64,000 nucleotides of DNA from Candidatus Aenigmatarchaeota archaeon. Its GTDB lineage: Archaea > Aenigmatarchaeota > Aenigmatarchaeia > CG10238-14 > SCSR01. The notes under the pieces were generated by a model, which was given only the letters and a program-made list of their open reading frames with translations, searched no databases and was not told the origin of the DNA. Location of the stretch: contig JAUWZS010000002.1 in NCBI GenBank assembly GCA_030615205.1, positions 200,082 through 264,081 on the forward strand, given 5' to 3'. The number at the start of each line of letters is the position of its first letter. Within the stretch, counting starts at the first letter, position 1. A program made the translations under genes and the position numbers. Shown one piece after another: positions 8,394-51,850 of the stretch.

Positions 8394-8930
8394 ATGAAAC
8401 CGAAAATTGAAGTCAGAAACATGGTAATCACAGTTACCTTTTCCGATCAGGTGGATCTCAATTATTTAGCAAGTAAGTTAGAGGGTGCTGAATACGCTCC
8501 CCAGCAATTTCCCGGTTTGGTGTATAGGATGAAAAAACCAAAGACAAGCTTTCTGATATTTTCTTCAGGGGTAATGAATTGTACTGGTGCAAGAAGTATA
8601 AAAGAAGCGAAAAAAGCGATATCACAGATGTTAAATATACTAAAGAAGCTGGGGGTCAAGGTGAGAAAGCCAAAGATGGAGATTCAAAACATAGTCGCAA
8701 CATATGACTTTGGAAGACGGATATATCTCGATAAGGCTCTACAACTAGAGAATACAGAGTACGAGCCAGAACAGTTTCCAGGCCTTGTCTACAGAACGAA
8801 AAAAAGCGTCGTCTTTCTAGTGTTTGGTAGTGGAAAAATAGTTTGCGTTGGAGCGAGGAACGTAAAACAAACTGAAGAAGCAATTGAGAATCTCATCAAA
8901 AAATTTAAGCGAATCCGTGCTTTAAAGTGA
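8394..8930 (+). CDS. tbp: TATA-box-binding protein
   Basis: Two repeats with EY(A/E)P(Q/E)QFPGLVYR, LIFSSG and LVFGSGKIVCVGA. Confidence 0.97.
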   Translation: MKPKIEVRNMVITVTFSDQVDLNYLASKLEGAEYAPQQFPGLVYRMKKPKTSFLIFSSGVMNCTGARSIKEAKKAISQMLNILKKLGVKVRKPKMEIQNIVATYDFGRRIYLDKALQLENTEYEPEQFPGLVYRTKKSVVFLVFGSGKIVCVGARNVKQTEEAIENLIKKFKRIRALK

Positions 8931-12954: not shown

Positions 12955-12989
12955 ACGCCCAGGGTTGGTGTTTAACTAATGGTTAAGAA
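12955..12989 (-). repeat. tRNA-Ser 3'-end copy (att-like)
   Basis: ACGCCCAGGGTTGG followed by the palindromic TTAACTAATGGTTAA. Confidence 0.8.
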
Positions 12990-17945: not shown

Positions 17946-17981
17946 ACGCCCAGGGTGGGATTTGAATCTACATAAGGATTA
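17946..17981 (-). repeat. tRNA-Ser 3'-end copy (att-like)
   Basis: ACGCCCAGGGTGGGATTTGAA is identical to 21208-21228. Confidence 0.9.
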
Positions 17982-18538: not shown

Positions 18539-18580
18539 ACGCCCAAGGTGGGTGTCATCGGCTTGAGGTAGATTTTGGTG
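18539..18580 (-). repeat. tRNA-Ser 3'-end copy within a ~42-bp direct repeat shared with 20257
   Basis: ACGCCCAAGGTGGGTGTCATCGGCTTGAGGTAGATTTTGGTG. Confidence 0.85.
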
Positions 18581-19838: not shown

Positions 19839-20089
19839 ATTTTAATCTCACCTATATTTGCTTCTCTTTTTATTTTTTGTTTTCCCAAAGTCACAGAAGC
19901 AACAGAATTAGTATGTCACGCCGAATCAGCATCAACTAACGCTATTTGTCACACGCTTTGTACCTTGTCTTTTCTTTTCTAATCTATCATGAAATGGACA
20001 GTATTTAAACATTTGCATCTGTTTGGATTTGTCCAGCTTTGGTGTCGACCACTAAGCAAGAAAAATTCTTCTTTCAGAAGGATTGATTT

Positions 20090-20256: not shown

Positions 20257-20298
20257 ACGCCCAGGGTGGGAGTCATCGGCTTGAGGTGGATTTTGGTG
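20257..20298 (-). repeat. tRNA-Ser 3'-end copy (att-like)
   Basis: ACGCCCAGGGTGGGAGTCATCGGCTTGAGGTGGATTTTGGTG; the first 15 nt are identical to the tRNA end. Confidence 0.88.
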
Positions 20299-21150: not shown

Positions 21151-21208
21151 AAGAATTGATTAGTATTTCTATGAATAAGGTTTTTGAGTTTCTTTATTGA
21201 GGAATAGA

Positions 21209-21345
21209 CGCCCAGGGTGGGATTTGAACCCACAAGGACCGAAGTCCGCTAGCTCTCTGCGTTTTTTATTTTTAGCAAGAGCTTAGCAGGCTCGCACGGC
21301 TTTACGCAAAAGCCTTAGTGCCCTACCGGGTTAGGCGACCTGGGC
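21209..21345 (-). tRNA. tRNA-Ser(GCT) with two BHB introns (29/30: 21292-21315; 37/38: 21255-21283)
   Basis: Acceptor stem GCCCAGG/CCTGGGC, discriminator G73 and a long variable arm. Removing both introns gives CTAGC-CTGCTAA-GCTAG. Confidence 0.88.
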
Positions 21346-24324: not shown

Positions 24325-25689
24325 ATGAGCGATGCTTCAAAGAAAGATAAAATTACAAAGAAAGATAAGACTATGGACAAAGCGATCGAAAAAGGCGATT
24401 TCATAGAAATTGGAGAGATTCTGCACGGCAAAAAGACCGGCAGCGTAAGTTTGCGTGGCTGGCTGGCGCACAAGCGATCGAGCGGCGGTATACAGTTCAT
24501 TATACTCCGCGATCCGAGTGGGTTTATTCAATGCACGCTCAGCAAGGACATTGATCCGAAAGTATTTGATGAAATTGAGGCACTGCCAATAGAATCTGTT
24601 ATTGCAATCGATGGTGAAGCAAGAGCAGACAAGCGTGCGCCGAGCGGGCATGAAGTTTCGATTAAAAAAGTAGATATCCTTTTCAAAGCTGAGCCGGATT
24701 GGCCGATTGTAAAGAAAAAACACGGACCTGAGTTTTTACTTGACAAGCGACACTTATGGCTGCGCAGCGACAAAATGCAAGCTATGCTTCGCGTGCGGTC
24801 AAAGCTTATTGAAATCGCTCGCCAGTGGCTTTTAGAGCACGGATATATAGAATTCCAATCACCGATATTTATCACAGCTGCATGCGAAGGCGGTTCCACA
24901 CTTTTCCCTGTTGAATATTTCGGCCGACAAGCCTATTTGACGCAAAGCTGGCAGCTGCATGCAGAAGCAGCCATATCAAGCATAGGCAAGATTTTCACAC
25001 TTGCACCAAGTTTTCGTGCAGAAAAGTCGCGCACACGCAGGCATCTGGCTGAATATTGGCATTTGGAGGCTGAAGAGCCTTTTTGTGATTTAGAAGGAAC
25101 TATGAAGATGCAAGAGCAGTTTGTATCGCATATATGCCAGCACTTGGCAAAAGAAATGCCAGAGCAACTCAAACTTTTCGGCCGCGATCCGAAAGAGATG
25201 TTAGCTGTAAAGCATCCTCTTCAGCGAATAACGTATGATGAAGCCATTGAAATAATAAAGAAAGGAGGCGGTGATATCAAGTGGGGAGACGATCTGACTT
25301 GGGTGCACGAGAAGATACTTACAAAAAAGCATAAAGTGCCGTTTTTCGTTTACAAATACCCGAAAGGTGTAAAAGCATTTTATCATATGCCAGATCCAAA
25401 AGATCCGCGAGTCACGCTCTCAGCAGACCTTATGGCACCCGAAGGGTACGGCGAACTCACTGGCGGTGGGCAGAGAATACACGATTTTAAACAGATGATG
25501 AAAAGGTTGAAGGAAGAAAAACTGGATCCGAAAGCGTATGAGTGGTATATCGACCTGCGTAAGTGGGGGAGCGTACCGCATTCAGGATTTGGTATGGGTA
25601 TCGAGCGTATGCTAATGTGGATACTAAAACTCGAACATATCCGAGATGCTATTGCATTCCCACGCACGCTCACAAGACACTATCCATAA
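24325..25689 (+). CDS. asnS: Asparaginyl-tRNA synthetase
   Basis: OB fold, YLTQSWQL, FRAEKSRTRRHL and PHSGFGMGIER motifs; followed by tRNA-Asn. Confidence 0.93.
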   Translation: MSDASKKDKITKKDKTMDKAIEKGDFIEIGEILHGKKTGSVSLRGWLAHKRSSGGIQFIILRDPSGFIQCTLSKDIDPKVFDEIEALPIESVIAIDGEARADKRAPSGHEVSIKKVDILFKAEPDWPIVKKKHGPEFLLDKRHLWLRSDKMQAMLRVRSKLIEIARQWLLEHGYIEFQSPIFITAACEGGSTLFPVEYFGRQAYLTQSWQLHAEAAISSIGKIFTLAPSFRAEKSRTRRHLAEYWHLEAEEPFCDLEGTMKMQEQFVSHICQHLAKEMPEQLKLFGRDPKEMLAVKHPLQRITYDEAIEIIKKGGGDIKWGDDLTWVHEKILTKKHKVPFFVYKYPKGVKAFYHMPDPKDPRVTLSADLMAPEGYGELTGGGQRIHDFKQMMKRLKEEKLDPKAYEWYIDLRKWGSVPHSGFGMGIERMLMWILKLEHIRDAIAFPRTLTRHYP

Positions 25690-25759
25690 AATTAAAACAA
25701 AACAAGATAAGAATTTAAACAACGTAAGAAATAGTGTATAATAAAAAATGTAATGGGAT

Positions 25760-25831
25760 GCCTCGGTAGCTTAGTGGTAGAGCAACTGGCTGTTAACCAG
25801 TAGGTCATGCGTTCAAATCGCATCCGAGGCG
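25760..25831 (+). tRNA. tRNA-Asn(GTT)
   Basis: Acceptor GCCTCGG/CCGAGGC; anticodon arm ACTGG-CTGTTAA-CCAGT. Confidence 0.95.
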
Positions 25832-25907
25832 TTTTTTAATTTTTTAAATTTAGAAATTTCAATAAAACTAATATTTTTATATAGCAGGAACTGAATCTTT
25901 ACATCGG

Positions 25908-31058: not shown

Positions 31059-31589
31059 TCAACAGTAATCTTCTCCTGATTCTTGTTTGATCCTTGCTAT
31101 TGCTGTTCCTTTTTCTATCTTTTTGTGGATCTCTTCAAGCTCAGGCGGTATTTCTATGCCCTGCTTCTTGTAGAATTTGTAGATTGCTTCATACAATGCA
31201 TCAGTTGAAAGAAGCGAGCAGTGGACCTTGATTTTCGGCAGACCCCCAAGCGCGCCATTGACATTGTGCCTTGTTATTTTCAGTGCTTCCTTTAGTGTCT
31301 TCCCTTTAGCAAGCTCGGTAATCATACTGCCTGTAGCAACAGCTGCTGCGCATCCAAAACTCTGGAATTTTATGTCTTTTATGTAAAATTCGTTATTCTC
31401 GTTTTTATCGATCTTGAGATAGACCCAAAGTTCATCCCCGCAGATTGGACTGCCTACTTTGGCTACAGAGTCCGCATCCTCGATCTCGCCCATATTATTC
31501 GGATTACGGAAATGTTTTATAACTTCCTCTGTGTACGGGCCGTACCTGCTTTTCTTTATTTTTGCTTTTGTCTTTTCTTCAGGCATCAT
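31059..31589 (-). CDS. iscU: Fe-S scaffold protein IscU/NifU
   Basis: HFRNPNNMG, CGD, FGCAAA and KVHCS motifs. Confidence 0.93.
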   Translation of the reverse strand: MMPEEKTKAKIKKSRYGPYTEEVIKHFRNPNNMGEIEDADSVAKVGSPICGDELWVYLKIDKNENNEFYIKDIKFQSFGCAAAVATGSMITELAKGKTLKEALKITRHNVNGALGGLPKIKVHCSLLSTDALYEAIYKFYKKQGIEIPPELEEIHKKIEKGTAIARIKQESGEDYC

Positions 31590-31594
31590 AAATA

Positions 31595-31616
31595 TATAAC
31601 AGTGTTATAATTTAAA
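31595..31616. promoter_or_regulatory. Palindromic operator TATAACAGTGTTATA next to the iscU TATA box
   Basis: An identical 22-mer occurs at the sufS promoter (48637-48658). Confidence 0.8.
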
Positions 31617-34243: not shown

Positions 34244-34264
34244 GAACAAAAATCTATCTGATTC
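34244..34264. repeat. GAACAAAAATCTATCTGATTC motif (outlier copy)
   Basis: Matches the copies at 44793 and 45158. Confidence 0.8.
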
Positions 34265-34270
34265 TGCTAG

Positions 34271-34960
34271 CTAGTCTTTTAATCTTCCGGAAAGTTTCAC
34301 TTTTCTCTCAACATATTTCCTAATTTTCTTAATTATCTTTACATCAATGCCCAATCTTTTCGCAATTTCTTCATTCGACAACTTTAATAGCTCTTGCAAC
34401 CCTTTTTCAGAATAAAGTGGGTGTATCCTCTTAATTAATTTTTTAATTTGTTTGTCGTCTCCATCTTTTATGTTTTTAAAGAACGCGTGTGTCAATTCAG
34501 TAAAATCATTTTCAATACCAAGTATTTTATAGAATATACTGTGAGCGTCGAATGCCCTAACACCGATAAATTTTATTCTGTAACCTTTCCCCATAACCTT
34601 CTTGAATATTATTTTAGCTCGCCGTAAATGGTAACCAGATGTAACAAGTGCTATATTCCTCCATTTATTTGGTTTTAATATCCTTTGTTTGATGAAGAAT
34701 GCATTCCCTATAGTGTCTGTGGATGTATCCTCTTTAATGATGTCTCTTTTCTCAATGCCTCTGGAAACAGCATACTGTTTCATCGCTTCTGCTTCAGTTA
34801 TCTTCAGCTTACTATTACTTAGACCACCACACATGATTAGCTTAGATTCAGGGGAATTACTATACAAACTGATGGCAGTGTCAAGTCTGGATTTTAATAC
34901 GCTTGGTAATTTTTTCTTGTCTTTGAGCGTAAAACCCAGTACAATTATGCAGTCGAACAT
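34271..34960 (-). CDS. YdcF/DUF218 family protein
   Basis: IIVLG, SRLD.A, CGG, TEAEAM, STDTIGNA and VTSGYHLRRA motifs. Confidence 0.9.
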   Translation of the reverse strand: MFDCIIVLGFTLKDKKKLPSVLKSRLDTAISLYSNSPESKLIMCGGLSNSKLKITEAEAMKQYAVSRGIEKRDIIKEDTSTDTIGNAFFIKQRILKPNKWRNIALVTSGYHLRRAKIIFKKVMGKGYRIKFIGVRAFDAHSIFYKILGIENDFTELTHAFFKNIKDGDDKQIKKLIKRIHPLYSEKGLQELLKLSNEEIAKRLGIDVKIIKKIRKYVERKVKLSGRLKD

Positions 34961-43442: not shown

Positions 43443-43898
43443 CTAACCACAGACTTCTCGCTGGCAACTGCAATCGCCCTCGCATGCAGCGTACTCTGGG
43501 CTTTGACATGTTTCAACATCGCATACGCAAAGACCTTCACATCCGCAAGCTGGAGCGCCTATATCAAACAGACAATTTTCGCTATATGGGTCGCACGTGC
43601 CATAGACGAAAAGATTGTACAAACCATATGCAGAATAGATCATGCTGGCAAAAAGCACTATAGTGAAAATCCATGATAGCAGCTCGAAACGCTTGTAAAC
43701 AAATCTTGCTGCACGCGGACTTCTTCTGAGCAGTTTGGAAGTGAGCTTGGATTTTATTCTGTTGTCCAAGCCTGTTTCGCAGGCTTTGAGTTGCAAACGC
43801 TGAAAAACGCAACGAAAAGCTTCTTTGGCAATAACGCGATAACGGGCTGAAAATATACCAAGAATACCAAACGTAATCAGTGCAATTATGCAAATCAT
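43443..43898 (-). CDS. Membrane protein with Cys-rich C-terminus
   Basis: Two TM helices and a Cys-rich tail, within the redox gene cluster. Confidence 0.7.
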   Translation of the reverse strand: MICIIALITFGILGIFSARYRVIAKEAFRCVFQRLQLKACETGLDNRIKSKLTSKLLRRSPRAARFVYKRFELLSWIFTIVLFASMIYSAYGLYNLFVYGTCDPYSENCLFDIGAPACGCEGLCVCDVETCQSPEYAACEGDCSCQREVCG

Positions 43899-43919
43899 TC
43901 AATCACTCAAAATAACAGA

Positions 43920-44681
43920 TTAACCACAACCGCCCGTTGAGGACGGATTGCCTTGTTCCACTTCTGCTCCGGATGGAATTTCGCAACTTGTGGCATCTGA
44001 GAATGCTTTAAATGTTATTTGTCCTTGATACCTTTTTCCATTTATAATTATAGTTGGGTAGCCTGTGACGCCTGCGTTATCACATTCTTCTTTTTGTTCC
44101 GTACATTCTACGTATATTGGTTCAACCATGTCAAACCCACCCAACATTGTCACCAGCTTTTTAGTCCACCCGCACCAATTTGCTCCGTATATCTCGAAGC
44201 CAGAATCTTTAAGACAATCTATAAATTCTCTGAGGTCTTCTTCGTCTATATTCAATTCCTGTGGCTGCGTTGTAGTAGTTGTAGTTACAGGTATAGAAGT
44301 ATCGAATACACCACCACCTTGCCCAGTAATTAGTAAATGTTTACCATCTTTCGTGATATACACATCTATTTCAGTACCTCGATAAGAAGTTATAACTTTG
44401 TAAATTCCACTCATTTCTTCTGCAGAGACAAAAGTAAACTCTCCAGTTTGTATTAAATTATTGTTTATGTATTCTACTGCTTTATCTCCAGCCTGCTGTG
44501 CAGTCAACCCGCCAGTAGCCGTTACTTGCCCTGTTACTCCAAGCCCGAACAGCCCAGGCTGTACAATTAACACCAAACATACTACAAGAAGTATAACAGT
44601 GACTATTATCCAAGGATTTATTTTAGGCATACTAGGTAATCGTACTGTTATTTTTTTTCCTTCTGTATTCTCATCAGCCAT
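43920..44681 (-). CDS. Membrane-anchored thioredoxin-fold (DsbA/DsbC-like) protein with CxxT site
   Basis: YGANWCGWT, YVEC and GYPT motifs; likely start MADENTE at 44681. Confidence 0.75.
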   Translation of the reverse strand: MADENTEGKKITVRLPSMPKINPWIIVTVILLVVCLVLIVQPGLFGLGVTGQVTATGGLTAQQAGDKAVEYINNNLIQTGEFTFVSAEEMSGIYKVITSYRGTEIDVYITKDGKHLLITGQGGGVFDTSIPVTTTTTTQPQELNIDEEDLREFIDCLKDSGFEIYGANWCGWTKKLVTMLGGFDMVEPIYVECTEQKEECDNAGVTGYPTIIINGKRYQGQITFKAFSDATSCEIPSGAEVEQGNPSSTGGCG

Positions 44682-44836
44682 GAAACCACTATGTCCACAT
44701 ACAAATTCAGTTTTTATTACTTCTAAGATGTTTAGCAAATCTTATAAAGCTTTAGTTTTGCAGTATAATTTTCTGTTCATTATGAAATCTAAGAACAAAA
44801 AATCTATCTGATTCTTAGATTTGAATCGAATAAAGA

Positions 44837-45124
44837 TTATACTATGGTTATTCTGAAACTAGTTTTAAATTCAGTGATTTTTTCCTCACTCAGTAAATAA
44901 AACGGGCATATGTTAGGATTCGTTGAAAACTCTGTGCATCTCATTTCTGTTAAAACTTTAGCAAGTCCAGGTTGTTCTTTAAATAATTCTTTATAATTAG
45001 GTTCTATAGCATTTTTATAGCATTCTAATTCATGCGGACAAGTTCTTCTACGTAAATATGAATTATGGATTTTTTCTCCAAATGCTTGAAGTAACTCTCT
45101 TTGAAGTTTGTTCATAAAAAACAT
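44837..45124 (-). CDS. Hypothetical protein with Cys motifs
   Basis: 95-aa ORF with CPHELEC...C...CPFY. Confidence 0.6.
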   Translation of the reverse strand: MFFMNKLQRELLQAFGEKIHNSYLRRRTCPHELECYKNAIEPNYKELFKEQPGLAKVLTEMRCTEFSTNPNICPFYLLSEEKITEFKTSFRITIV

Positions 45125-45226
45125 AATATAGTTAGATTTTTAAACTTTCTCTTCCAAGAACAAAAAATCTATCTGATTCTTGAGTTATTTAGAAGGTTAT
45201 AAAAATACTAAATCTTTATTAAAGAT

Positions 45227-46256
45227 TATGGCAAAGAACTTTCCTTTCCAAGTTTTAAGGGTTAGTGGTTCAAACTACGATATCGGGTTTCAGATCGGCA
45301 GTAAGTTTAAGGATAAAATAAAGGATGCGTTGAGTCAAAGCAACAAACTCAAATTCTTGAGAAAGGAGGATGAATCTAACCCAAAAAAATTTAACCAATT
45401 AGAGACGATCGGACAAAAACATTTTCCTCAGTACATAGAGGAAATCAAAGGAATCGCTGAAGGCTCTGGTCTTGAGTACAGGGATATCGCTCTTATGAAT
45501 TTCAAGTACGAGTACCCAGAAGGTTGTACAAGTATAATATTCAAGACAAAAAACAGAATGCTATTAGGACATAATGAAGATGGTGCAAAAGAGAACCTAG
45601 AAAATTCCTTTCTTGTAATTGCTAACCCCAAATCAGGAATTCCATTCTTTTCATTCTGCTATCCTGGCTTATTGCCTGGTGCATTTTCATTCAATTCTAA
45701 AGGTCTAGTCCAGACTGGTAATTGGATGCCAACACCAGACATAAGAATTGGGATACCAAGGCATTTAATCGACAGACATGTAGTCGAAGCTGAGAATGTT
45801 GATGATGCATTGAAAAGAGCATTACTGGATGGGAGAGCATCTGGTTTCAGCTATAACATTGCTTCGATCGAAGGGAGAGCTGTGAACTTGGAAACCACAT
45901 CCCAAAAACATCACGTAACGGAAATCACGGATAAATACATTCATACGAATCATTATGTTTCCACTGGATTGAGAGATATTCAAGAGAAAATATACAAATC
46001 CACTCAAATAAGATATGAACAAGGACTCAAGATGTTAAAGGGTAGAACGACTAAATCTCCTAACGATGTTTTAGAAATGCTATCATCGAGAGAAAATGTA
46101 CCTTATAGTATCTTTTCTCAAGGAGGTGGTGATTGTGCTTACACACTTTGCACTGCTTTATTCGAAATTTCTAATGATGGAGTTATCCTGAGATTGTATC
46201 CACCCAAACCAGAGAAGGATGAGTGCATGAAATTTTCTTTAAACGACTTAAAATAA
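45227..46256 (+). CDS. C45 family peptidase / acyl-CoA:6-APA acyltransferase-like Ntn hydrolase
   Basis: EEIKGIAEG, autocleavage site G-CTS, GHNED and HTNHY; the ATG at 45227 is the preferred start. Confidence 0.88.
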
Positions 46257-46286
46257 ATTATCTGATTCGGGTTGTTATAATATCTC

Positions 46287-46754
46287 TCAAGACGTTAATT
46301 GTTGTAACTTTTTCATGAGTTTAATCGACTCTCTTTTTCCTTTAGGATATAGATTGCGAATTGTGTATTTTTCTCTTTTTAAAAGAACATTGTTATTGGG
46401 TAACTTACTTGCTCTGTAAAGCAATAATCTTGAAGGTGTACCTATAGCAATAAATCTAACTCCTTCTACCTTAACCATTTCATAATATTGTCTCAAATCT
46501 CCTTTTGAAGGTCTCTCTAAAGGGTGAGTATGGTATGAAACTACTTCATATTCTGAAGAAACGCTACTCACAGCATTAAGAATTTTTAAGTCTCTTTCAG
46601 AAACTACATGTATGTTACCTCTTTCTGTTATCAATTTAGAAATTATCACAAAATCTGGATCATATTCTAAACCAAACAAGTAGCCAACTTCTTCTATACC
46701 ATCGTATCTTAGACTTTGCTCTATTTTTTCTGGTATGAAAAACATTTTTATCAA
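46287..46754 (-). CDS. JAB/MPN+ domain metalloprotease-like protein
   Basis: EEVGYLFG ... YHTHP..RPSKGD matches the JAMM motif. Confidence 0.75.
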   Translation of the reverse strand: MIKMFFIPEKIEQSLRYDGIEEVGYLFGLEYDPDFVIISKLITERGNIHVVSERDLKILNAVSSVSSEYEVVSYHTHPLERPSKGDLRQYYEMVKVEGVRFIAIGTPSRLLLYRASKLPNNNVLLKREKYTIRNLYPKGKRESIKLMKKLQQLTS

Positions 46755-46888
46755 TTAAATCGTCTAATACTTAAACTTTTAACTCTTTCCTCGAGAACAA
46801 AAAGTCTATCTGAATCGGGATTATCCTTTAGCACATAAAATGTTTTCTAATTGGTTTAAATATTCCAATAAAGTTTGAGGTGGTGCAT

Positions 46889-47230
46889 TTAAACTATTAA
46901 CTTGCACTGAAGGTTTTCCATGACGGTACTCATTGAACCAAGGTACGTCTGTCCAGCAAATTGTTTTTTTCCTATTGATTTATTGAATTTTTCTGTCAAC
47001 TCATCAATTTGTTTACTAACTTCTTTAGAAATGGGACCACTTTCATACGTTAGACTAACTGTCCAAGGTACTCCATCTTTACGATCAATTTTTGCATATA
47101 TCTTAGTTCGTATTCCTCTTGTTTCGTAAACTCTACTCATTTCGATTTGATGTCTGCCAATTACAGCATGCCCTTCCCTTGCTAATTGTTCTATCATTAA
47201 AGGTGTATAATTTTCTTTCAAAAAATCCAT
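46889..47230 (-). CDS. Hypothetical protein
   Basis: ORF with likely start MDFLKEN. Confidence 0.6.
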   Translation of the reverse strand: MDFLKENYTPLMIEQLAREGHAVIGRHQIEMSRVYETRGIRTKIYAKIDRKDGVPWTVSLTYESGPISKEVSKQIDELTEKFNKSIGKKQFAGQTYLGSMSTVMENLQCKLIV

Positions 47231-47382
47231 TTTAATCACAAAAAATAAATGGAGCGTCAAACTTAAATTCCTTTCGTTATTTTTGGCGAGCCCAAAGTGA
47301 ACCCAGAAAAAAATCTATCTATAAAACTTATGTTTTCGACTAGGCATGAACATTAATCAAGAAGTGAAGTATTTTATATGAG

Positions 47383-48603
47383 TTATGCGAGCTGTGAAAT
47401 TTCTTTTAATTTTTCAATGAACAGTTCAGCCTCTTTTTGTGTGTTATAAAGATAAAGCGATGCACGTACAGATCCGCGGATTGCATGTGCGTTGAACCAT
47501 GAATGCATGCAGTGCGCGCCAGAACGGACCATTATATTAGCAACATCATCAAGCATTATTGCTATGTCATGCGGAAACATCCCCTTTATGTTGAATGATA
47601 TTATGCCACTGCGCAATTTTGGATCAGCCGGTCCGATTATTGACATGCCTTTTATATCCTTTATTCCGTTTGTTATAATTTCATTGAGCTTCGTGTCATG
47701 CTTTTCCACTTTATCCAATCCGATTTTTTCCAGATATTCAGCTGCAGCAGCAAGTCCCATCGCGCTCGCATAGTTTTGCAGTCCAGCCTCGAATTTTTCA
47801 GGCGGAGGCAGTTCAGTATGTTCGTCGTATGTTGTATCTTTTACAGTATCCCCACCGACCATGAACGATCCCAGTTTTTCCAGCACGTCGTATCGCCCGT
47901 AAAGCGCACCAATGCCGCTCGGTCCCAGCATCTTATGCCCAGAAAACGCAAGAAAATCTATACCAAGCTTACGAACATCGACTTTTTTATGCGGCACGCT
48001 TTGCGCACCATCCACAAGCACAACTGCGCCTGCATTATGGGCGATTTCAATAACTTCTTTTATTGGAATAGTGTAGCCGTCCAAGTTTGATGTATGCACG
48101 ATCGCCACAAGTTTCAGCTTGTCCCCAGCAGTTTTCACTTTACACTCAAATTCAGCCAAATCAAATGTCATATCCGGCGCAGAAAAAACAATCTCATGCT
48201 TCACGCCTTTCCGCTTAGCCGCCAATTGCCAAGGCAACAAGTTTGAATTGTGCTCCCGGTCGCTTGTTATAACAACATCACCGGATTTAAAATCAAAAGT
48301 ATTCGCGACAAGGTTTATCCCTTCAGTAGTATTTCGCGTGAAAACAATTTCCTTTTTTTCTTTTGCGCCAATAAACTTTGCTATCCTATTTCTCGCAGCT
48401 TCATAATGCTCACTCACCATTTCGCCGAATTTGTGTATGCTTCTTCCAGCACATCCTGGATATTTGAAATAATATTCGTTCATTGCCTCAACGACACGCG
48501 CAGGCCGCAGGCTCATACATGCATTATCTAAATATACGATCGGTTTTCCCTTCAGCTTTTCCTTCAGCACAGGAAAATCCCCACGAATCTTTTCTACGTC
48601 CAT
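47383..48603 (-). CDS. sufS: Cysteine desulfurase, SufS type
   Basis: YLDNA, REHNSN, DGAQS, SGHKMLGP and RSGAHC motifs. Confidence 0.94.
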   Translation of the reverse strand: MDVEKIRGDFPVLKEKLKGKPIVYLDNACMSLRPARVVEAMNEYYFKYPGCAGRSIHKFGEMVSEHYEAARNRIAKFIGAKEKKEIVFTRNTTEGINLVANTFDFKSGDVVITSDREHNSNLLPWQLAAKRKGVKHEIVFSAPDMTFDLAEFECKVKTAGDKLKLVAIVHTSNLDGYTIPIKEVIEIAHNAGAVVLVDGAQSVPHKKVDVRKLGIDFLAFSGHKMLGPSGIGALYGRYDVLEKLGSFMVGGDTVKDTTYDEHTELPPPEKFEAGLQNYASAMGLAAAAEYLEKIGLDKVEKHDTKLNEIITNGIKDIKGMSIIGPADPKLRSGIISFNIKGMFPHDIAIMLDDVANIMVRSGAHCMHSWFNAHAIRGSVRASLYLYNTQKEAELFIEKLKEISQLA

Positions 48604-48636: not shown

Positions 48637-48658
48637 TATAACAGTGTTATAATTTAAA
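48637..48658. promoter_or_regulatory. Palindromic operator TATAACAGTGTTATA next to the sufS TATA box
   Basis: Identical to 31595-31616. Confidence 0.8.
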
Positions 48659-51498: not shown

Positions 51499-51850
51499 GG
51501 TGAGTTAGCCAGGTAGCTTCGGTTTGCTGTAAAAAGTAAACTGAGGAAGTTCCATCCATTAAGGGGAGCTACGAAAGCTGTTCCGTGCAAACGAAAGCAG
51601 TAGAGTAGTAGCATGCTGAGAAGCATTTGGCTGTATCAGAAACGGAACTTTTCTATCTCGCCAACAATGTAGCTGAAGCTCTTTCGAGTTGTCAAAGACC
51701 CGAAAAAGAAAAAGCTGAGTTGAGATAGAATAAGATGAAACGGACAGTCGGTCCCGATGCAATGCAAGTCGAAAAGACGCTTAGACAAATGCTACTTAAG
51801 TTTTTGCGCAAGCGAAAACGAAACAGAAGATGGGCTATAGCTAACACGCC
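51499..51850 (+). ncRNA. rnpB: RNase P RNA
   Basis: GAGGAAGTTCCATC (CR-I) and AACAGAAGATGG (CR-V) form the P4 pairing; P1 is GTGAGTTAGC/GCTAACAC. Confidence 0.93.

Follow-up and report, generated by a model that had tools for sequence, protein, structure and literature searches.

Integron attC sites carry two core sequences, R'' (RYYYAAC) and R' (GTTRRRY). Clusters of attC sites without an integrase (CALINs), which lack IntI, have been reported also in Aenigmatarchaeota; nine tested archaeal attCs are given in data S9 of that report, and the eight compared whole are G+C-rich imperfect palindromes of about 58-97 nucleotides (nt) that run from ...AAC-AA to GTT(A/G)... (PMC9668308). The dif site is described as two 11-bp arms plus a 6-bp spacer, present once per chromosome at the terminus (PMC2958812). 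Here, we analyze a 22-bp repeat, GAACAAAAAATCTATCTGATTC, that recurs between single genes next to a sufS-like cysteine desulfurase gene in a 64,000-nt stretch of contig JAUWZS010000002.1, hereafter called the window. An earlier note on this DNA had interpreted the repeat as an attC-like or dif-like site for the stacking of gene cassettes, with a conserved T-rich terminator on the minus strand as the alternative.

Intergenic repeats and transcription signals offer further comparisons. Repetitive extragenic palindromic (REP) sequences, bacterial interspersed mosaic elements (BIME) and Correia elements are short, abundant, intergenic and lineage-specific; they can supply terminators or promoters, and they are palindromic or have terminal inverted repeats. 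To our knowledge, nothing is known from experiment about the start and stop of transcription in DPANN archaea with very small genomes. According to the data reported in PMC8716108, transcript 3' ends of Methanococcus maripaludis lie behind U4 tracts; a single tract terminates with a median efficiency of 43%, and tract number and aCPSF1, which binds U-tract RNA, together set the efficiency. For Thermococcus kodakarensis, the TATA box is reported at a median of 23 bp and the transcription factor B (TFB) recognition element (BRE) at 33 bp from the start site (PMC4247193).

Results

The repeat and its distribution

Read on the strand that carries its T-run, which is the minus strand of the window, the repeat has the consensus (G/A)AATCAGATAGATTTTTGTTCT, or (G/A)AATCAGATAGATTTTT(T)GTTCT with an optional T. 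We propose that it is a lineage-specific element at the boundaries of transcription units, in which a U-tract terminator is joined to a BRE/TATA-like or promoter-upstream part. On the sequence comparisons below, we hold this reading to be probable, though not strongly so.

The 22-mer occurs twice exactly in the window (copies at 44793 and 45158) and once with two mismatches (46795), as the earlier note had stated; with up to three mismatches allowed, three matches are found against 0.00 expected from 100 shuffles. A shorter probe detected a fourth full copy at 34244, with five A instead of six, giving at least four full copies per 64 kb. Their nhmmer E-values are 5.9e-10 (45158), 3.6e-8 (34244), 3.1e-7 (46795) and 5.3e-7 (44793). 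Two partial copies, placed near 46259 and 47306 by the note, also exist, though they are weak: a 19-mer is matched at 79% by 46250-46268 (E 0.22) and 47308-47320 is an exact 13-mer, AAAAAATCTATCT (E 2.8). Five copies cluster within 2.6 kb near sufS. All window copies share the same orientation, and the claim that this orientation is kept although one flanking gene lies on the opposite strand was borne out for every one of them. The two T6 copies (44793 and 45158), which both flank a gene for a protein of 92 amino acids (aa), are identical at 28 of 29 nt.

A single pattern scan over species-representative genomes (AACAAAAA-N{0,1}-TCTATCTGAWTC) returned 29 loci. The 20-nt form accounted for 20 exact copies, on both strands, in 19 loci (16 after merging overlaps) of seven archaeal assemblies, mostly labelled Candidatus Aenigmatarchaeota. 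The 21-nt matches fall in eight loci, all of them bacterial and with unrelated flanks, and look like chance, as does the bacterial 20-nt match L025. A variant is carried by locus L020 of a Woesearchaeota metagenome-assembled genome (MAG), which lies outside the 16 loci analyzed. An nhmmer search of the same loci with a profile built from 24 copies brought up about 30 additional, diverged copies, and there are several copies per 4-kb locus in these relatives. The T6 form was absent among the scan returns and seen only in the window copies 44793 and 45158. Seven window proteins have a match in the archaeal loci (10 window-to-locus pairs) with 43-72% identity, and values of 63-72% are reached by a helicase, asparaginyl-tRNA synthetase (AsnRS), a PRC-barrel protein and one GTPase pair; the window therefore derives from a relative of these genomes, and not from one of them, since the scan did not return its six-A form.

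When 48 copies are aligned, a block of 17 columns shows either no variation or at least 90% identity. Conservation is highest in AGATAGATTTTTGTTCT, and the invariant bases include GAATCAGATAGA. Some copies consist of the right half alone behind unrelated sequence; others consist of the left half alone, GAATCAGATAGAT followed by degenerate T-rich sequence, and by eye these follow stop codons. The 17-20 near-invariant bases suggest a sequence-specific reader.

Three other roles were considered and rejected, the last of them as the main role. One reading frame is open across the motif, but invariance at all codon positions speaks against coding constraint or read-through. Although CTGA occurs close to the end of the plus strand, the upstream C box (TGATGA) of a C/D-box small RNA was seen by eye in none of the window copies. 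As a Shine-Dalgarno (SD) sequence, GGAAGAG/GGAGG would lie 13-15 nt before starts, against 6-11 nt for the clear SD sites of the window. At the gathering threshold, Rfam yields only RNase P and tRNAs in the whole window, and nothing is found at E ≤ 1 in 43800-47500. A scan for bacterial-type promoters and terminators is uninformative for an archaeon.

Orientation and position relative to genes

Coupling to transcription was assessed for 47 copies, with open reading frames (ORFs) of at least 60 aa and tRNAs as neighbors. The T-run strand is co-directional with the genes on both sides in 19 copies, matches only the upstream gene (convergent gap) in 11 and only the downstream gene (divergent gap) in seven, and is opposite to both in four; six copies were unclassed. 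Two of the four opposite copies are artefacts of the 60-aa limit, as small plus-strand ORFs flank the L027 motif by eye, and the L004 copy is ambiguous. A DNA site indifferent to transcription should occur equally often in either orientation in co-directional gaps. Every full copy has a run of T5-T7, and the strand that carries it matches the gene direction; a U-tract terminator calls for U4 or longer on the sense strand just past the gene.

The motif is also tied to gene ends. In 26 of the 33 copies with a co-directional upstream gene, the start of the matched core falls between -22 and +34 nt relative to the end of that gene. In L011 and L027, the DEAD-box helicase (...RRRFR-stop) terminates at the TAG within the motif, as does an ORF in L010. 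Motif copies are found at the helicase stop in two species, and just downstream of the GTPase gene in two species. In the window, the motif provides the first run of T5 or longer behind the stop codons of the DUF218, 92-aa and sufS genes and of a 123-aa ORF; in L017 and L021, no T-run lies between the tRNAs and the T5 of the motif.

Spacing to start codons

Distances to start codons were determined for 43 copies with at most one substitution in the core; the two T6 copies and the copy at 46795 escaped the regular expression. An ATG, GTG or TTG of an ORF of at least 15 codons lies at +20 to +23 after GTT in 15 of the 43, against 9.2% of 6366 control positions, and the distance histogram shows the same peak (seven copies at 21 nt, four at 22 nt and two at 23 nt). 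At least some of these starts are real, because the zinc-ribbon protein of L013:3866-4018 has its Pfam domain from residue 1 onwards and its first residues are common to three orthologues. Set against the published TATA and BRE distances, this spacing would put the T-run and AGATAG, in the 15-copy class, where a leaderless mRNA would have its TATA box and BRE.

A second arrangement is an AT-rich box at +8 to +26, present in 22 of the 43 copies and at 9.7% of controls. It lies 12-15 nt after the motif, usually with purines upstream (GGAAGAGAAAG-TTTAA). At the L011 helicase, 12-14 nt separate the motif from a downstream TTTAAATA box, which is conserved in L027 and the window. Window genes carry a TTTAAA-type 8-mer (TTTAAA or TTTATA) 20-24 nt before ATG; the box 14 nt downstream of the motif fits this consensus and looks like the working TATA box in the window.

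A 16-codon ORF encoding MGIARRKKHKKKRKGK is identical in two species (L013:1540-1590 and L027:1605-1655); it is flanked by motif copies and its ATG lies 21 nt after the motif. It is reminiscent of ribosomal protein L41e.

Genes bordered by the motif in relatives

In the neighbor-gene survey, 78 of 97 ORFs of at least 50 aa were scanned, leaving out 19 that were short, antisense or duplicated by overlapping loci. The genes next to the motif encode a DEAD-box helicase, an MMR_HSR1 GTPase, a GATase_5 (PurQ-type) amidotransferase, MarC, a peptidyl-prolyl isomerase (PPIase), Alba and an AAA ATPase, and further an acylphosphatase, an asparaginase-like protein, aIF5A, a cold-shock protein, thioredoxin and tRNAs. 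Occurrence of the motif downstream of core genes was one of three observations that the earlier note had named as speaking against cassettes, and it is what the relatives show, for example at the helicase, the GTPase and the tRNAs.

Two further features of these loci are conserved. Three genomes (window 19839-19965 on the minus strand, L011 and L027) share a leader of about 110 nt that precedes the DEAD-box helicase, 3' of the TTTAAATA box, and may be a regulatory 5' untranslated region. The AsnRS gene is directly followed by tRNA-Asn both in the window (24325-25832) and in L013:101-1476, with a gap of 1 nt in L013.

Genes around the repeat in the window

The window is an A+T-rich piece of an archaeal chromosome with an archaeal RNase P RNA (51500-51849) and five tRNA matches in Rfam; all six RNA genes end in T4-T7 runs. 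A TATA-binding protein is encoded at 8394-8930. At 44-47 kb, the G+C content is 0.32-0.35, below most of the window. The features around the repeat are collected in Table 1. The gene assignments of the earlier note hold for the C45 peptidase, two hypothetical proteins and sufS, and for the JAB protein only as a weak match. The Pfam match of the first of these names only AAT, a family that we take to be C45 peptidases; no motif copy runs in the direction of this AAT gene, which has its own TTATAAAA box at 45199-45206.

Two of the four genes in the array (92-aa and 123-aa) belong to rare families, and neither the 95-aa nor the 123-aa ORF has a Pfam family match. For the 92-aa protein, a public protein set places the start at the second ATG, and only five, distant relatives were found among 1.84 billion representatives. 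The TTTAAAAA box upstream of this gene is likely its TATA box, judging from its geometry, and the JAB-like gene is preceded by a similar box. A sequence one mismatch from the motif core, AGTTAGATTTTT, lies on the opposite strand at 45130-45141 (+), where it shares positions with the TATA-like box in front of the 92-aa gene; it may be a chance match, as 1.35 such matches are expected per window.

Table 1. Positions of motif copies, neighboring genes and related elements in the 64-kb window
Feature	Position	Strand	Context
CCCACCCTGGGCGT copies, tRNA 3'-end-like	12955-12968, 17946-17959, 18539-18552, 20257-20270, 21208-21221	-	
Full copy, T5 (form of other genomes)	34244..34264	-	6 nt past DUF218 stop; convergent gap with PAC2 gene
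DUF218 protein	34271..34960	-	stop just before copy 34244
Membrane protein, weak thioredoxin-like matches	43920..44681	-	gene downstream of copy 44793
Full copy, T6	44793..44814	-	22 nt past stop of 92/95-aa gene; upstream of thioredoxin-like membrane gene; 11-bp inverted repeat (44785-44822) around motif
92-aa Cys-rich protein, small rare family	44837..45115	-	95 aa if first ATG (45124) is used
TTTAAAAA box with AGAGAAAG upstream	45137..45144	-	21 nt before second ATG of 92-aa gene; geometry compared with other window genes and PMC4247193
Full copy, T6	45158..45179	-	divergent gap between 92/95-aa gene (-) and C45/AAT gene (+); 14 nt upstream of TTTAAAAA box
AAT-family gene (acyl-CoA:6-aminopenicillanic acid (6-APA) acyltransferase)	45228..46256	+	Pfam PF03417, 8e-34
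Left-half copy, minus-strand GAATCAGATAATTTATTTTAAG	46251..46268	-	18 nt past stop of JAB-like gene
JAB-like protein	46287..46745	-	weak Prok-JAB match, 5.6e-4, below Pfam cut-off
2-mismatch copy	46795..46816	-	72 nt past stop of 123-aa ORF; 13-20 nt upstream of TTAAAAGTTTAAG boxes of JAB-like gene
Hypothetical protein (123-aa ORF), start uncertain	46889..47230	-	two homologues found
Right-half copy, minus-strand AGATAGATTTTTTTC, T7	47309..47324	-	about 60 nt past sufS stop
Class-V aminotransferase, cysteine desulfurase (sufS/nifS-like)	47383..48603	-	1.3e-118

Another 22-mer, TTTAAATTATAACACTGTTATA, is found identically on the minus strand at 31595-31616 and 48637-48658, upstream of a NifU-like gene (31059-31589) and of sufS (two exact window matches against 0 expected). 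It joins a TATA-like box to the dyad TATAACA-C-TGTTATA, and for this reason it is probably a shared operator, predicted to serve a regulator of Fe-S clusters.

Comparison with recombination sites

The proposed attC-like or dif-like cassette-stacking site was not supported: we found no R''/R' cores, no conserved hairpin in 48 copies, no 11-6-11 architecture and no recombinase family in the window ORFs scanned. By eye, the motif has GAAC-AA at one end and CTGATTC(TT) at the other, while the opposite strand reads GTT followed by pyrimidines (GTTCTTG). Its conserved part spans 20-22 nt, against an imperfect palindrome of roughly 55-140 nt for attC. Identity with the published Aenigmatarchaeota attC was rejected, as the sequence in data S9 is an unrelated, G+C-rich one of 72 nt and the motif strings are absent from that supplement (PMC9668308). 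The flanked ORFs are not accessory cassettes in the relatives either, where the motif borders the helicase, GTPase, PurQ-type amidotransferase, Alba, PPIase and tRNA genes. As to dif, arms of 11 bp occur only in 44785-44822, where 16 nt lie between them, and are found in no other copy; nor is there one site per chromosome, given the number of full copies in the window and per locus in relatives.

The inverted repeats on which the earlier note had relied, AAATCTAAGAA/TTCTTAGATTT at 44785-44822 and CAAGAA/TTCTTG at 45155-45182, are present, but long stems occur at only these two of 48 copies (at least 10 bp at 44793 and 7 bp at 45158). The comparison with attC by single-strand folding, which the note had suggested, gave only two of ten DNA folds that beat shuffles, namely both strands of 44775-44832 (-6.9 kcal/mol, z about -2); the other sites of the five folded had z ≥ 0. 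Pairing at the outer seven stem positions of the 48 copies amounts to 0.357 of cells, compared with 0.381 when partners are shuffled; the observed value is reached in 1788 of 2000 shuffles. None of the 64 of 65 window ORFs scanned with Pfam belongs to an integrase, transposase or resolvase family, the ORF left out being one that overlaps tRNA-Leu; CALINs, too, are without IntI. In L018, a Phage_integrase ORF lies 1.3 kb from a motif copy.

Direct repeats of tRNA 3' ends were observed at three loci, L013:1461-1709 (20 nt), L014:1969-2901 (54 nt) and L017:561-2049 (14 nt), with spacings of 229, 879 and 1475 bp. They enclose the 16-codon basic ORF (L013), zinc-ribbon and cold-shock genes (L014), and PPIase and GTPase genes (L017), and look like integration scars without an integrase. 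The window itself holds five copies of a tRNA 3'-end-like fragment, CCCACCCTGGGCGT, against 0.07 expected. They sit at gene boundaries, including the helicase and GTPase 3' ends where other species carry the motif, and the copy at 21208 has a full T-arm with no tRNA detected. These fragments could be att remnants, split-tRNA halves or processing signals.

Discussion

The repeat appears to be the local form of an intergenic signal common to a DPANN lineage whose MAGs are labelled Aenigmatarchaeota. Its functional strand would be the minus strand of the window, on which it would mark the boundaries of transcription units. The position and orientation of the U5-U6 tract in the RNA, shortly past the upstream stop, are observed; by analogy with known archaeal termination at U-tracts by aCPSF1, the transcript most likely ends there. 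The motif probably also helps to start the next transcript, as judged from its geometry. In a third of the copies, AGATAG and the T-run sit where the BRE and TATA box of a leaderless mRNA of the next gene would be expected; in the alternative layout, seen at the 92-aa and JAB-like genes, the motif lies 14 nt ahead of a canonical AAAG-TTTAAA box. The copies near sufS would then represent five consecutive gene boundaries on the minus strand, and its constant orientation would follow from the plus-strand C45 gene having its own box and no motif copy.

Of the known systems, archaeal oligo-U terminators (aCPSF1/FttA) resemble the motif in its sense-strand T5-T7 soon after stops and tRNAs and in its gene-tied orientation. 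Unlike them, the motif sets its run in 17-20 bases that are invariant across species, occurs also in divergent gaps, which have no incoming transcript, and keeps a fixed distance to the next start. The terminator alternative of the earlier note thus stands as far as T-run strand and position after stops are concerned, but is incomplete, as it leaves aside the fixed 20-23 nt before starts in a third of the copies and the invariant bases. With BRE/TATA leaderless promoters, the motif has in common an AT-rich stretch that ends 20-23 nt before the start and a purine-rich stretch just upstream, a geometry like that of the TTTAAA boxes of the window and of the T. kodakarensis promoters described in PMC4247193. 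It differs from them in its core (AGATAG ATTTTTGT), which is not the local TTTAWA consensus, in being often followed by a canonical AAAG-TTTAA box 14 nt later, and in its convergent-gap copies, which have no gene to drive.

Several observations weigh against a boundary element. The 3' ends of the window helicase and GTPase genes lack the motif where relatives have it, which means that it is dispensable. Runs of at least five T are not enriched downstream of window genes (30/70, against 29/70 for A runs of that length). Individual copies do not fit: the one at 45158 has no co-directional upstream gene, since no minus-strand ORF ends there, the one at 34244 has no co-directional downstream gene, and the L014 copy, which lies within the 54-nt direct repeat, is truly opposite to both neighbors. 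The core ATTTTTGT departs from the usual TTTAWA box of the window, and the T6 form and extended inverted repeats shared by both copies around the 92-aa gene find no explanation in such an element. Finally, the 17-20 near-invariant bases go far beyond what a U-tract terminator or TATA box needs, and because they are left without explanation, two rivals stay alive.

The first of these rivals is an operator or upstream activating site for one DNA-binding protein (a regulator or a paralogue-specific TFB or TATA-binding protein (TBP)) that controls a gene set, the position at gene ends being a by-product of very short gaps. Such a protein would account for near-invariant bases in about 48 copies of eight genomes, for the location of 45158 midway between two divergent TATA-like boxes, for the downstream box at a fixed distance in 22 of 43 copies, and for the conserved box of the L011 helicase. 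We nevertheless find it doubtful, given that the 11 of 47 copies in convergent gaps have no gene to regulate, that the neighboring genes have no obvious common function, that the motif is not a dyad and that left-half copies occur only at gene 3' ends. Those left-half copies (eight by eye, all after stop codons) speak for the second rival, a 3'-end signal in the RNA, where transcribed GAAUCAGAUAGA and a U/GU-rich tail would be bound in the nascent transcript by a processing or stabilising factor, in a logic like that of poly(A) signals. Convergent-gap copies, tRNAs followed by the motif and the U-tract binding reported for aCPSF1 (PMC8716108) agree with this. It is improbable all the same, in view of the seven divergent-gap copies without an incoming transcript, the right half being best conserved and at a fixed distance to the next start codon, and the lack of conserved RNA structure and of an Rfam match.

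Rearrangement of DNA offers less. A site-specific or short-homology recombination core that stacks gene-sized modules would fit the single, uniformly oriented copy in each gap around small genes, the near-identity and common T6 form of the copies flanking the 92-aa gene, the very small families of the 92-aa and 123-aa proteins, the low G+C content at 44-47 kb and the existence of half copies. Moreover, L013, L014 and L017 hold motif-bounded modules between direct repeats of tRNA 3' ends, and the L014 repeat takes in the motif; yet the common core of these repeats is the tRNA end and not the motif. This reading is made very unlikely by the lack of attC cores, length and fold, of dif architecture and of recombinase families in the scanned ORFs, by the motif's placement at housekeeping genes and tRNAs, by its overlap, in two species, with the stop of the helicase gene, and by its strict coupling to the direction of genes and the distance of start codons. 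Integron attC and CALIN arrays do share with the motif one site per small ORF, 3' of it, in constant orientation, as in the five copies in 2.6 kb; unlike attC, the motif is short and A+T-rich, lacks an R' core or conserved fold, borders housekeeping genes and has only GAAC-AA in common. With dif/Xer and pdif sites it shares being a short conserved site between discrete genes, with 11-bp inverted arms at 44785-44822, and differs from dif in the spacing of these arms, their restriction to one copy and the many copies per genome; pdif modules, for their part, alternate in orientation. Hardly to be credited is a selfish miniature repeat, similar to REP or miniature inverted-repeat transposable elements (MITE), that spreads through intergenic DNA and is merely tolerated. 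It would explain many near-identical copies with unrelated flanks, the usual 'AATAAC(T/C)CAA' left flank of 45158 although no gene ends there, and presence that varies between orthologous positions. However, the motif is only 20 nt long, is neither palindromic nor flanked by terminal inverted repeats, unlike REP/BIME and Correia elements, has no conserved hairpin and by eye no target duplications, and is oriented with transcription; no transposase-like gene was found, with REP-associated tyrosine transposases (RAYT) and IS200 looked for only via Pfam scans.

Beyond a boundary element built of known parts, the motif could be a lineage-wide, sequence-specific punctuation mark with a dedicated reader, either as a 3'-end signal or as a promoter class of a TFB/TBP variant, accompanied by motif-bounded mini-modules of one or two genes that may move between tRNA-linked sites. 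As a 3'-end signal, it would be an archaeal counterpart in logic to the poly(A) signal with its U/GU-rich element. Movement of mini-modules is hinted at by the tRNA-end direct repeats of L013, L014 and L017 and by the two identical copies around the 92-aa gene. We consider this broader proposal unlikely, if conceivable. No earlier description of the motif was found among the titles and abstracts listed by full-text literature searches on Aenigmarchaeota promoters and on DPANN leaderless, TATA or intergenic signals.

Conclusions

For cassette hunting, this locus calls for caution: where small ORFs are flanked by regularly spaced intergenic repeats of one orientation, these can be transcription signals and not attC sites. 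A boundary element of 17-20 invariant nt that is linked to gene direction in several species provides a concrete sequence for the study of transcription in DPANN archaea. If a dedicated factor does read the motif, it would be a sequence-specific boundary signal of a kind not described for archaea.

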